Positions 3,673 through 6,277 of a DNA stretch of 13,338 nt are shown piece after piece. The stretch's first letter is position 1. Each line of letters opens with the position of its first letter. The translations under genes and the position numbers were made by a program. The stretch is from a virus: UHGV virus genome UHGV-1739656. One strand, 5' to 3'. A model generated the notes under the pieces. That model saw only the letters and a list, made by a program, of their open reading frames with translations, ran no database searches and was not told where the DNA came from.

Positions 3673-4003
3673 ATCCCCCGCAGAACGCAAAGCCGCGCAG
3701 CGCGCTCGGCAGTCCGCCGCCGGTGAGCGCAAAATTGAACTGGTGCTGGATAAGCAGGAGCAGGAAATGCTGGCGCGGAACTGCGCCGCCCGGCGCCCTG
3801 GTCGCGATCCCTATGAAATGGCCGAGTACATCGCGTTACTGATCCGCCAGGATGATGCACGCGTGCGCGGGCGTATAAAATCGATCAGCAGAAAATGTTG
3901 CGGTAAGTGCGGCGAGAGAGTTCCAGTTAATTCATGCCCGTGTAATGGTGACTCGCAATGCTGGGTGACTAAAGGCTGGCATGAAACGAAATTAATAGTG
4001 TGA
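3656..4003 (+). CDS. Ribbon-helix-helix-like DNA-binding protein with C-terminal Cys cluster (possibly YlcI/YnfO-like)
   Basis: GTG start at 3656 or 3665. A basic arm (SPAERKAAQRARQ) is followed by a beta-strand-like KIELVLD and two predicted helices, an RHH-like pattern. The C-terminus has CCGKCGERVPVNSCPCNGDSQCW, a metal-binding-like cluster. Sits immediately upstream of the terminase small subunit. Confidence 0.45.
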   Translation: MRFVAKSPAERKAAQRARQSAAGERKIELVLDKQEQEMLARNCAARRPGRDPYEMAEYIALLIRQDDARVRGRIKSISRKCCGKCGERVPVNSCPCNGDSQCWVTKGWHETKLIV

Positions 4004-4012
4004 CATGTCACG
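3999..4012. repeat. 14-bp palindromic motif TGTGACATGTCACG, copy 1 (core is a perfect 12-bp palindrome GTGACATGTCAC)
   Basis: Read directly from sequence. Overlaps the stop codon of the RHH-like gene. An identical 14-mer is at 6264-6277. Confidence 0.8.
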
Positions 4013-4052
4013 AGTAGATTATGCATGATGAATTTGATGGGTTTTGAATACT

Positions 4053-4079
4053 GCCGCCAACTATGGCGGCGTTATTTTG
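4053..4079 (+). terminator. Putative intrinsic terminator
   Basis: GC stem GCCGCC (4053-4058) / GGCGGC (4065-4070) with loop AACTAT, followed by GTTATTTTG. Lies between the RHH-like gene and the terminase small-subunit start. Confidence 0.45.
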
Positions 4080-4085
4080 CATGGT

Positions 4086-4114
4086 ACTATTACCACAACG
4101 GTAACTATTACCAC
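4086..4114. repeat. Two direct repeats of ACTATTACCAC (4086-4096 and 4104-4114), 18-bp period
   Basis: Read directly from sequence, just upstream of the terminase small-subunit ATG. They generate the odd TITTTVTITT translation in the extended track ORF 4044-4718. Confidence 0.75.
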
Positions 4115-4121
4115 GGTGGTT

Positions 4122-4718
4122 ATGATGCCTGCTGAACCTAAAACCTATAAACGCAAATCAACGCAATTTAAGCCACTAACAGCAATGCAGGAGGCTTATT
4201 GCCAGTCATACATCAAAACGCCTGAAAACCAGACTCAGGCAGCGATTAACGCAGGATTCTCCCCAAATACAGCGGCAGTTAAAGCCAGTGTCATGATGCG
4301 CGATGAACGCATTCAAAAACGGATTGCCGAGTTGATGGAGGAGCGCAACAAACGAATGCGCGTCAGTGCTGATTACGTTCTCATGCGCCTGGTGGAGATC
4401 GACCAGATGGACGTGATCGACATCCTCAACGACGATGGGAGCCTTAAACCAATCCGTGAGTGGCCGAAAATCTGGCGCACTACGCTTAGTGGCTTTGATC
4501 TGTCATCGACCATCATGAACATGAACGAGGATTCGATAGAGACAATCCTCAAAAAAATTAAATGGCCTGACAAGGTGAAGAACCTTGAGCTGATTGGTAA
4601 GCATGTTGATGTCAACGCGTTCAAAGAACGTCTGGATGTTAATGTGAATGTGACAATTGCTGATCGCATAGCAGCAGCCAGGAAGCGACTCAAAGAACGT
4701 CAGGATGGTAATCAGTGA
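4122..4718 (+). CDS. Terminase small subunit
   Basis: Start chosen at ATG 4122 (or 4125) rather than 4044, because the upstream extension translates a terminator hairpin and direct repeats. The protein (MMPAEPKTYKRKSTQFKPLTAMQEAYCQSYIKTPENQTQAAINAGFSPNTAAVKA...) resembles Terminase_2-type small subunits. Its stop overlaps the large-subunit GTG start. Confidence 0.75.
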   Translation: MMPAEPKTYKRKSTQFKPLTAMQEAYCQSYIKTPENQTQAAINAGFSPNTAAVKASVMMRDERIQKRIAELMEERNKRMRVSADYVLMRLVEIDQMDVIDILNDDGSLKPIREWPKIWRTTLSGFDLSSTIMNMNEDSIETILKKIKWPDKVKNLELIGKHVDVNAFKERLDVNVNVTIADRIAAARKRLKERQDGNQ

Positions 4719-6190
4719 CAGATACAGCGTTATCTCCTGAAGAGCAGTTGATCGAGGATATTGCAGGGTTCACTCACGATCCGCTTGGCTATGCCCTCTA
4801 TGCGTTCCCGTGGGGGGAAGAGGGGACTGAACTGGCACATGCTACCGGCCCACGTCAGTGGCAGGCTGATGCGTTCCGAGAGATACGTGATCACCTGCAG
4901 AATCCAGAGACGCGCTATCAGCCGCTTATGCTGGCACGTGCTTCGGGTCACGGTATTGGTAAATCCGCATTCATCTCAATGCTGATCAACTGGGGCATGT
5001 CCACTTGCGAGGATTGTAAGGTCGTGGTGACCGCCAACACCGACAACCAGCTACGAACGAAGACCTGGCCGGAAATTATCAAGTGGTCGAACCTTGCTAT
5101 CACGAAAGACTGGTTTACCTGTACCGCTACCGCGATGTACAGCAATGATCCTGGACACGACAAGCGGTGGCGAGCTGACGCAATCCCCTGGTCTGAGCAC
5201 AACACTGAGGCATTCGCCGGACTACACAACGAGCGCAAACGCATCATCGTGGTATTCGATGAAGCGTCGAACATTGCGGATCTGGTGTGGGAAGTTGCCG
5301 AGGGTGCACTAACGGACGAAGACACTGAGATTATCTGGGTGGCGTTCGGAAACCCGACGCGTAATACCGGACGTTTCCGCGAATGTTTCCGCAAATATAA
5401 ACACCGCTGGAAAACTGCGCAGATTGACAGCCGAACGGTGGAAGGCACTAACAAACAGCAGTTGCAGAAATGGGTTGATGACTACGGGGAAGACAGCGAC
5501 TTCGTTAAAATCCGTGTGCGCGGCATATTCCCTGATGCATCTGAATTGCAGTTTATCCCTACCGGTCTTACTGATGAGGCAATGAAACGGGTGGTAACCG
5601 CTGCGCAGGTGGCGCATGCTCCGGTGATAATCGGTGTTGACCCGGCATATTCAGGCGTTGATGACGCGGTGATATACCTGCGGCAGGGGCTACACAGTAA
5701 GGTGCTGTGGACTGGCAACAAGACTACCGACGATCTGATTATGGCGAAGCGTATCGCTGACTTTGAAGACCAGTATCAGGCTGACGCGGTGTTCATCGAC
5801 TTCGGTTACGGAACCGGTCTGAAGTCAATCGGTGACGGATGGGGTCGTACATGGCAACTTGTTCCGTTCGGTGGCGCGTCTACTGACCCGCAGATGCTCA
5901 ACAAGCGTGGGGAGATGTTCAATTCATGCAAGACATGGCTGAGGCTGGGCGGCATGCTGGATGACCAGGAAACAGCGGACGACCTGTCGGCAGCAGAGTA
6001 CAAAGTTCGAGTGGACGGTAAAATCGTTATCGAACCGAAGGAAGATATCAAAGAGCGACTTGGGCGTTCTCCTGGTAAAGGCGATGCGCTACTGCTGACG
6101 TTTGCGTTCCCTGTGTCGAAGCGTCTGCGAATTCCCGGTCAGCAGAACCAGCAAGGCAAGGCCATCACAGATTACGATCCCTATGCTTAA
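4715..6190 (+). CDS. Terminase large subunit (ATPase and nuclease)
   Basis: 491-aa ORF with a Walker A-like SGHGIGKS, a DE-containing Walker B-like IIVVFDEASN, and a C-terminal nuclease-like VIIGVDPAYSGVDDAVIY. Located between the small subunit and portal. Confidence 0.85.
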   Translation: MTDTALSPEEQLIEDIAGFTHDPLGYALYAFPWGEEGTELAHATGPRQWQADAFREIRDHLQNPETRYQPLMLARASGHGIGKSAFISMLINWGMSTCEDCKVVVTANTDNQLRTKTWPEIIKWSNLAITKDWFTCTATAMYSNDPGHDKRWRADAIPWSEHNTEAFAGLHNERKRIIVVFDEASNIADLVWEVAEGALTDEDTEIIWVAFGNPTRNTGRFRECFRKYKHRWKTAQIDSRTVEGTNKQQLQKWVDDYGEDSDFVKIRVRGIFPDASELQFIPTGLTDEAMKRVVTAAQVAHAPVIIGVDPAYSGVDDAVIYLRQGLHSKVLWTGNKTTDDLIMAKRIADFEDQYQADAVFIDFGYGTGLKSIGDGWGRTWQLVPFGGASTDPQMLNKRGEMFNSCKTWLRLGGMLDDQETADDLSAAEYKVRVDGKIVIEPKEDIKERLGRSPGKGDALLLTFAFPVSKRLRIPGQQNQQGKAITDYDPYA

Positions 6191-6263
6191 TCCGCTGGTG
6201 GGGATAATGTCGTTGATATCCTCTGGTGAGGATAAAACAAAGCCAGCTCATAGGCTGTCTGTT

Positions 6264-6277
6264 TGTGACATGTCACG
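6264..6277. repeat. 14-bp palindromic motif TGTGACATGTCACG, copy 2
   Basis: Identical to 3999-4012. Lies 74 bp downstream of the terminase large-subunit stop and 4 bp beyond the stop of the minus-strand ORF. Confidence 0.8.

Follow-up and report, generated by a model that had tools for sequence, protein, structure and literature searches.

The palindrome and its surroundings

The window, by which we mean the whole stretch of viral DNA that was analysed (13,338 nt of UHGV virus genome UHGV-1739656), carries a gene of the gp49 family immediately before the gene of the terminase small subunit (TerS), followed by the gene of the large subunit (TerL) and an antisense cargo ORF (Table 1). A sequence scan of the window located the 12-bp perfect palindrome GTGACATGTCAC as two exact copies, site 1 at the end of the gp49-family gene and site 2 beyond TerL, which also share their flanking bases. 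The earlier note on this DNA had reported two such identical palindromes, the first overlapping the stop of an RHH-like gene and the second lying just past TerL, 4 bp from the stop of an antisense ORF, and these observations were confirmed: the TGA stop of the gp49-family ORF is contained in site 1, while site 2 is 74 nt from the TerL stop and 4 nt from the antisense stop. Its estimate that the pair is unlikely by chance also stands, as a first-order Markov model gives an analytic expectation of 0.00125 for the exact 12-mer in the window, hence two exact copies are far beyond chance and the motif is real and non-random. The description of the copies as lying either side of the terminase genes is correct for the window but incomplete, since complete relatives have a third exact copy (site 3) ~17 kb further on, past the last structural gene. 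The window itself has a third copy with one mismatch, within a coding region.

C or T occupies position -1 in 98% of 80 distinct contexts, so that the identical T...G flanks of the two copies reflect a general pyrimidine/purine rule, and the general consensus of the site is YGTGAC-NN-GTCACR (14 bp). The spacing of the half-sites, GTGAC-N2-GTCAC, is constant and no N4-N6 variants occur, which agrees with the claim of the earlier note that this is not a CRP site and excludes CRP/FNR-type sites in general (TGTGA-N6-TCACA or TTGAT-N4-ATCAA). The palindrome also differs from the operator motif of the epsilon15-type prophage repressor, of which the window has its own copies. The exact motif was not found in the searchable literature, and the ZX5, PY54/P840 and other papers contain nothing on the motif, gp49 or packaging ends.

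Table 1. Coordinates of the palindrome sites and neighbouring features in the window.
Feature	Position	Strand	Description
gp49-family gene	3656..4003	+	115 aa as ORF, most homologues 112 aa; TGA stop at 4001-4003; candidate palindrome-binding protein
Site 1	3999..4012	.	TGTGACATGTCACG, exact match; 12-bp perfect palindrome core at 4000-4011 with Y/R flanks
Intrinsic terminator t1	4052..4078	+	8-bp GC-rich stem TGCCGCCAACTATGGCGGCG and TTATTTTG; terminator scan, RNA fold
Epsilon15-type prophage repressor operators	4089-4105, 4107-4123, 7212-7228		ATTACC-N5-GGTAAT
TerL stop	6190		
Hairpin and T-tract	6229..6264	-	abuts site 2 directly
Site 2	6264..6277	.	TGTGACATGTCACG, exact match; core at 6265-6276; between post-TerL hairpin and 3' end of antisense cargo ORF
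Antisense cargo ORF	6281-6622		
tRNA	6817-6890		only Rfam match in the window to reach the gathering score
Third window copy	9267-9278		GTGACATGGCAC, one mismatch

Terminators adjoining the sites

Between site 1 and TerS lies the terminator t1, at a distance of 40 nt from the site, and past t1 no sigma-70 promoter was detected. The same arrangement of site 1 and t1 exists in epsilon15, where the element is annotated as a terminator. At site 2 the order on the minus strand is antisense-gene stop, palindrome, hairpin and TTTGTTTTAT; the stem in the window is weakened by a point change (GGCTGTCT, vs GGCTGGCT in relatives), and in the relatives palindrome and hairpin are 4 nt apart, the minus strand having the better T-tract of the two strands. 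Motif and terminator are coupled in a single orientation, the palindrome always lying 5' of the hairpin at a gap of 0-4 nt (at site 1 instead 22-40 nt), with its centre roughly 33 bp behind the polymerase at the point of terminator release. The palindrome is itself no intrinsic terminator, as it lacks a T-tract and has a folding energy of -1.2 kcal/mol; the real terminators adjoin it. A general promoter role, with GTGACA as a -35 element, was rejected: a weak promoter-like match exists at site 1 alone, and any -10 element at sites 2 and 3 would fall within the hairpin. A class I/II activator geometry at site 1 was likewise discarded, since transcripts would start inside or just before the terminator. 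Searches with PADLOC and Pfam returned no matches for the neighbouring cargo ORFs, nor for an ORF in L107 that overlaps an array of half-sites.

Conservation and co-occurrence with gp49

Positional conservation in related phages, which the earlier note had proposed as a test, is pronounced. Of 79 loci for which homology to gp49 was the only selection criterion, 78 carry GTGAC-N2-GTCAC at the stop codon, in 77 cases at a position identical to that of site 1, and the overlap with the gp49 stop is also seen in N15, PhiR46_1, Yersinia vB_YenM_201.16 and L224, with differing central dinucleotides. A hairpin with the palindrome follows TerL at the spot equivalent to site 2 in ~40 of 59 distinct contexts, the copy after TerL being absent in about a third of the related lineages; the sequence of this hairpin varies with compensatory changes, while the neighbouring palindrome is invariant. 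Further sites are found 17-20 nt upstream of TerS (K233 and L231), 0-3 nt ahead of the Shine-Dalgarno sequence of the next gene, and, in one instance, inside repA of N15. The positions of the motif are syntenic and conserved among relatives.

Many temperate phages that are not related to each other carry the pair of motif and gp49, which was found in at least seven phage lineages spanning podo-, sipho- and myoviruses (epsilon15-, N15-, P2- and Mu-like), in which the GTGAC half-sites are invariant and the central NN variable, although the gp49 proteins are only ~35% identical. The earlier note had also suggested counting the motif in phages and hosts. This was done on a sample of 15 phage genomes and 105 kb of E. 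coli: nine gp49-positive genomes contain 24 N2 sites and one N3 site, whereas the E. coli sample has no N2 site. P2, lambda and P22 lack the motif, though they share their hosts with phages that carry gp49 and the site, and within the 15 sampled genomes the motif is exclusive to the gp49 family. A 14-mer scan of IMG/VR was used for contexts only, as hundreds of chance matches are expected and the match count is uninformative.

The gp49 family comprises 205 clusters at 50% identity, usually annotated as hypothetical, and its gene is the last or nearly the last of the early operon. The small protein has a helix at its N-terminus that is basic and rich in arginine, then a putative beta-alpha-alpha core, and near the C-terminus a motif of four cysteines (Cys4). 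Its fold matches are dsDNA-binding ribbon-helix-helix (RHH) proteins, to whose superfamily it may belong. A PDB sequence search and Foldseek gave nothing significant, and neither a toxin partner nor an overlapping promoter can be seen. Fused or longer members of the family have no informative domains and look like gene-call artefacts.

A putative gp49 operator at transcription-unit boundaries

Co-occurrence with gp49, the position at the stop codon and the adjacency to terminators make it most likely that the motif is an operator of gp49 rather than a packaging signal. We consider it somewhat better than an even bet that YGTGAC-NN-GTCACR is a dsDNA operator of gp49 acting at transcription-unit boundaries; gp49 as the binder, DNA rather than RNA as the target and the direction of the regulatory effect are what we infer. 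The interpretation in the earlier note is thus supported in part: among the roles that it had listed, an operator for the adjacent RHH-like protein is favoured, while packaging and recombination are disfavoured. The protein would probably bind the 14-bp element as an RHH-type dimer. The sites lie at the boundaries of transcription units, namely over the gp49 stop codon and 0-4 nt before intrinsic-terminator hairpins, with conserved late operons on one side of these terminators and variable cargo genes on the other. After accumulating and binding there, gp49 most likely alters the behaviour of RNA polymerase. In the version that we prefer, bound gp49 would be a roadblock to the polymerase. It would strengthen termination at the neighbouring hairpins, thereby insulating the late operons, and it would also hold back completion of the gp49 mRNA.

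Such an arrangement has both similarities and differences to known systems. RHH repressors of phages and plasmids (Arc and Mnt of P22, CopG, and type II antitoxins such as MazE, ParD and TacA) have palindromic operators that overlap promoters upstream of a gene, whereas the candidate operator of gp49 sits where the gene ends, in most cases with the stop codon inside it, and extra copies abut terminators, and gp49 has an additional basic N-terminal helix and the Cys4 motif. As in elongation roadblocks (LacI, CodY and CcpA operators), a sequence-specific dsDNA-bound dimer would sit within a transcription unit or at its end, but we know of no description of a systematic placement 0-4 nt before intrinsic terminators and over the stop codon of the regulator itself. 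An uncharacterised protein family is now linked to a precise 14-bp site, and the location of this site suggests an undescribed control of transcription-unit boundaries. The pair also offers an annotation rule for prophages, and it would be natural to consider it as an orthogonal DNA-binding part. Phages of the epsilon15/phiV10 type serve as models in structural biology and as O157 typing and reporter phages, and they are common as prophages in E. coli and Salmonella.

Alternative readings

The most serious alternative, which we nevertheless regard as unlikely, is that gp49 at the palindrome engages the passing or paused polymerase and permits read-through of the terminator. Early expression would then give way to late expression once gp49, made last among the early proteins, has accumulated, by a Q-like, promoter-independent logic. 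As with lambda Q and its QBE/qut site, the order is regulator, DNA site, terminator and late genes, gp49 takes the place of a late regulator, and a DNA-bound factor would be just behind the polymerase; the strong t1 with no sigma-70 promoter detected downstream, the tight spacing of palindrome and hairpin and the sites just upstream of TerS in K233 and L231 fit as well. The ~33 bp to the release point are similar to the distance from QBE to the pause in lambda. However, the order at site 2 faces the antisense cargo gene, hence antitermination there would drive antisense transcription into TerL, and the gap at site 1 is not 0-4 nt. Sites 2 and 3 have neither a promoter nor a sigma-dependent pause, the palindrome is multicopy, and operator-like motifs ahead of each late operon suggest separate promoters. 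gp49 is unrelated to the Q families, and N15, which has a Q homologue, and P2-like phages already possess Q or Ogr late regulators and yet keep the pair. A broader and still more speculative proposal is that gp49 and the palindrome form a previously unrecognised, horizontally spread, protein-controlled intrinsic terminator, in which a small RHH/Cys4 protein on dsDNA behind the hairpin, about 33 bp from the release point, would turn termination on or off at particular operon ends. Its half-sites would be matS-like but one base pair closer together, a spacing at which MatP may not bind.

The resemblance to matS raises the prospect of a site for host MatP or another host protein, e.g. for positioning or condensing phage or prophage DNA, which we think improbable. 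The matS consensus is GTGAC[AG]N[TC]GTCAC, 13 bp with a 3-bp spacer (PMC3603311), while the phage sites all have a 12-bp core with a 2-bp spacer and are enriched as N2 only. In the E. coli sample the picture is reversed, with one N3 matS; this genuine K-12 site served as the positive control. The motif tracks gp49 rather than the host, and it lies at transcription-unit ends, whereas matS is located in the host Ter region. gp49 lacks the four-helix bundle of MatP and has the Cys4 tail instead; hhalign gives a probability of 0.14% for the two proteins, Smith-Waterman z is 1.5 or less against shuffles, and Pfam searches with 14 diverse gp49 members at E up to 10 found no match to PF06303 or PF17414. 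When MatP itself was the query, a homologue search yielded nothing beyond near-identical E. coli sequences, which added no profile depth. True matS is present in 0 of 500 prophages, and the phage site is a curious near-copy of this otherwise avoided host signal, with half-sites one base pair closer.

Equally hard to favour is an RNA element, a small hairpin (GUGA/CNNG/UCAC) in transcribed 3' UTRs and intergenic regions that gp49 or a host factor would bind and that would influence folding of the terminator hairpin, stability of the mRNA or translation of the gene that follows. Every site is indeed found at a junction that is transcribed, directly 5' of a terminator hairpin or before a Shine-Dalgarno sequence, and the arginine-rich helix and Cys4 motif of gp49 would suit such a role, but the hairpin is marginal (at best equal to shuffles) and has no Rfam family match, the fold matches of gp49 are to dsDNA-binding proteins, and the 'stem' is invariant without covariation while the 'loop' varies, the opposite of typical RNA-hairpin recognition.

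A recombination site, at which crossover or cleavage would swap accessory (moron) cassettes and which would mark module boundaries, is comparably doubtful. At least 12 unrelated antisense cargo genes start 2-9 nt from site 2, site 1 is followed by more than 10 different sequences, homology between the window and HEMP4 stops exactly at 6276, and in L177 GTGACAT alone is left before unrelated DNA. However, homology is expected to break off where a selected element ends, with no need for special recombination. Only gp49 co-occurs with the motif, nucleases and recombinases do not, and the sites at the gp49 stop, in N15 repA and before TerS are not cargo junctions. T4-type PeSL cassettes are similar in that a short repeated regulatory motif lies beside stem-loops bordering accessory-gene slots; they include an early promoter, and a role in recombinational shuffling is assumed for them, whereas the 12-14 bp palindrome is tied to one protein family and also occurs away from cargo junctions.

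Compared with the gp49 operator that we prefer, a pac-type packaging signal recognised by TerS is very remote, as each genome has three scattered copies, a palindrome cannot provide packaging direction, the cos phages among the carriers (N15, PhiR46_1, Yersinia P2-like) have the motif at a large distance from cos, and the TerS families of motif-bearing phages are unrelated and not shared between them (Terminase_2, Terminase_4, DUF1441/Nu1-like). Site 1 does lie ~110 nt upstream of TerS, and the sites of K233 and L231 are closer still. The GenBank records of phiV10 and Tyrion open inside site 1, that of Tyrion being cut exactly at the centre of the site, although these start points may be mere convention.

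A palindrome conserved at gene junctions

The palindrome GTGACATGTCAC occurs as two exact copies in the window (Table), with the same flanks each time (TGTGACATGTCACG), as an earlier note had reported, and its judgement that two identical copies are improbable by chance held up, with 0.00125 copies expected in the window under a first-order Markov model. The TGA stop (4001-4003) of the gp49-family ORF falls within the first copy (site 1), while the second (site 2) lies 3' of TerL, 4 nt from the stop of an antisense ORF. A one-mismatch copy, GTGACATGGCAC, within the gp5-like coding region is probably non-functional; it is found too in phiV10 (5306) and TL-2011b (16873) and is absent from epsilon15.

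Table. Coordinates of features in the window
Feature	Position	Remarks
gp49-family ORF	3656-4003 (+)	PHROG-536 'transcriptional regulator'; epsilon15 gp49 homologue; no Pfam or NCBIfam match
Palindrome, site 1	4000-4011	exact
Strong intrinsic terminator	4052-4078	between site 1 and TerS
Epsilon15-type repressor-operator matches	4089-4105, 4107-4123, 7212-7228	
TerS		Terminase_2; real start probably ATG 4122/4125
TerL	4715-6190	
Palindrome, site 2	6265-6276	exact
Variable island	6277-7300	antisense 113-aa ORF, 90-aa ORF, tRNA-Arg
Antisense 113-aa ORF	6281-6622	phrog_27507, function unknown; no Pfam, PADLOC or NCBIfam match
90-aa ORF		phrog_4647
tRNA-Arg(tct)	6814-6890 (-)	
Portal and structural genes	past variable island	
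One-mismatch palindrome	9267-9278	

Epsilon15/phiV10-like podophages (genus Uetakevirus) and numerous E. coli prophages share 96-98% identity with the region. As in epsilon15, ATG 4122/4125 is the most likely start of TerS; from the phiV10-style start (TTG 4044) the strong terminator would fall inside the ORF. The GTGAC palindrome is not the operator annotated for the epsilon15 repressor, ATTACC-N5-GGTAAT. This operator has three matches in the window (at most one mismatch) versus 0.32 expected, two in tandem just 5' of the TerS start and one preceding the gp3-like gene. These matches point to separate control regions for the late operons and to direct control of them by the prophage repressor.

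The element is non-random and positionally conserved. The comparison covered the complete Uetakevirus-type genomes of seven phages from four host genera (phiV10, epsilon15, Tyrion, SPN1S, BUCT711, TL-2011b and HEMP4, the last being the closest relative). All seven carry 2-3 exact copies, and the three junctions that hold them are the same throughout; BUCT711 has one extra exact copy within a coding region. Site 1 runs over the gp49 stop; site 2, between TerL and an antisense gene, has a hairpin next to it; and site 3, beyond the 13-kb window, comes after the final plus-strand gene in the structural operon, immediately before a hairpin and T-tract. Half-site spacings other than N2 were not found in the seven genomes. 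Across 80 distinct contexts, the base that flanks the palindrome is a pyrimidine in 98%, and the full element is therefore the 14-bp YGTGAC-NN-GTCACR.

Co-occurrence with the gp49 family

The element co-occurs exclusively with one protein family. Homologues of gp49 with 35-44% identity were found by tblastn in N15-like phages (N15 gp46, phiKO2 gp44), P2-like Yersinia myophages and Vibrio phages, the genomes of which carry GTGAC-N2-GTCAC with different central dinucleotides. N15 has three sites, one of them over the gp46 TGA stop, which are all the same 12-mer (GTGACTGGTCAC) once strand is considered and are all conserved in position in PhiR46_1; the Yersinia phage has a single site, over the stop of its gp49 homologue, the Vibrio genome K233 has three and VPHZ6 has two, one lying 1 nt past the stop codon. 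One N15-type site is within the repA/primase gene, ~620 nt from the gene start (33237 in N15, 7689 in PhiR46_1).

Counting the motif in phage and host DNA, as the earlier note had proposed, gave 24 sites versus 0.25 expected across nine gp49-positive genomes (Poisson 4e-39), with 0-1 sites for the remaining spacings within N0-N8, and none in 105 kb sampled from the Ter region of E. coli K-12; these 105 kb hold one genuine 13-bp matS, so the search works. P2, lambda and P22 have neither a gp49 homologue nor such sites. Among the epsilon15 ORFs, gp49 alone has homologues in all five motif-bearing non-Uetakevirus genomes and none in the controls, and TerS and TerL are not common to these five. 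In 80 viral contigs retrieved by gp49 homology alone (1.32 Mb), 136 sites were found versus ~1.3 expected, and 78 of 79 evaluable gp49-family genes have a site at the stop.

The family is compact: 205 clusters emerged when 1.84 billion representatives were searched with a profile. Sites lie near six of the eight distant members examined, with two Mu-like prophages and various other temperate phages among the six; five distant lineages have 11 sites in 71.8 kb versus 0.07 expected, and in one genome (L224) the site is again over the TGA stop. No site was found in the DNA examined for two of the distant lineages, nor in that for a weak Aeromonas homologue. In the Mu-like prophages L220 (6352) and L225 (6349), the family member sits where the early region ends, just 5' of gemA/mor, and the site is within its gene, 36-38 nt before the stop and at an identical position in both. 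Dense iteron-like arrays of GTGACAT/TGTCACG half-sites surround an exact palindrome in unrelated viral contigs (L069 at ~1880-1960, L107 at ~10800-10900, L050, L040, L055 and L062), with no gp49 homologue in the fragments examined; the L107 ORF overlapping the array has no Pfam match.

Placement at stop codons, terminators and variable DNA

The TGA of the gene forms bases 2-4 of the palindrome at 22 of the 31 non-redundant 3' ends; in others the site sits 4-17 nt downstream, so that the palindrome is no by-product of coding. The Shine-Dalgarno sequence of the next gene directly follows the stop-codon site in N15-like lineages and in several more, and in K233 and the genome L231 sites lie 17-20 nt 5' of unrelated TerS genes.

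The element is linked to terminators in a single orientation. Of 112 non-redundant contexts, 41 show a palindrome followed by a hairpin and then a T-tract, with a palindrome-to-hairpin gap of at most 6 nt in 29 of them and peaks at 0 and 4, whereas the reverse order (16 cases) always had a distance of at least 7 nt. At site 2, where the hairpin is slightly degraded in the window, the T-tract is better on the minus strand, hence the rule 'gene stop, palindrome, hairpin, T-tract' fits the antisense cargo gene.

The palindrome faces variable DNA: site 2 is adjoined by at least 12 unrelated cargo genes, and the DNA just past site 1 comes in more than 10 different sequences. Homology between the window and HEMP4 (3666-6276) ends precisely on the final base of the second palindrome and resumes at 6608; that the palindrome is a recombination site, another candidate of the earlier note, is a weaker reading than a boundary role. 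Site 2 is dispensable: about one third of lineages are without it and a few have point mutations. In L177, only the left palindrome half (GTGACAT) is kept 3' of TerL, followed by unrelated sequence, an apparent rearrangement breakpoint at the palindrome centre. In several relatives (L004, L005, L008, L022, L033, L114 and L120), a near-perfect LexA-box-like palindrome (e.g., TACTGTTTAAATATACAGTA) lies ~40 nt past site 1; these carry an extra operon between gp49 and TerS, possibly an SOS-controlled antirepressor module.

A proposed boundary role and its main rival

The reading with the best support is the leading guess of the earlier note, an operator for the adjacent RHH-like protein; gp49 is the predicted binder, as a dimer. 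A palindromic operator for a small RHH-type regulator would be familiar; what would be new is its placement, on top of the stop codon of the regulator gene and next to terminators, together with its spread to phages of many types, and no description of the element was found in the searchable literature. We favor a role as a boundary or insulator. As the product of the last early gene, gp49 would bind ahead of the terminators lying between the late operons on one side and the early operon and antisense cargo genes on the other, and would reinforce termination there; at its own stop codon it would hold back the completion of its own message.

The main alternative is that gp49 acts as an antiterminator. 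It sits where a late regulator would, upstream of a strong terminator before TerS past which no promoter was detected, and the palindrome centre would lie ~33 bp behind a polymerase positioned at the release point. However, the orientation of site 2 would then send antisense transcription into TerL, and Q or Ogr is already present in N15 and P2-like phages.

Probable DNA target, MatP and packaging

The target is quite probably DNA. The outer five base pairs are invariant, without covariation, across lineages whose proteins are only ~35% identical, and the central pair varies, a pattern which fits a dimer reading double-stranded half-sites and is the opposite of that usual for RNA hairpins. An RNA element is the weaker reading, as the 12-mer as RNA folds at -1.2 kcal/mol, not better than shuffles, and Rfam has no family match to the palindrome. 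Binding by host MatP is likewise a weaker reading: matS, GTGAC[AG]N[TC]GTCAC (PMC3603311), has the same half-sites with one spacer base more, but gp49 and MatP have no sequence relationship (hhalign probability 0.14%; Smith-Waterman versus shuffles, z ≤1.5), and the connection appears to be resemblance only.

The earlier note's framing of the palindromes as bracketing the terminase genes, or as serving packaging, is not supported. A pac site is a weaker reading, contradicted by copy number, by the motif in cos phages and by unrelated TerS families. Two GenBank records open inside site 1, namely phiV10 (...GTGA|CATGTTAC, one mismatch) and Tyrion, cut exactly at the palindrome centre (GTGACA|TGTCAC); these ends may reflect convention or real DNA ends.
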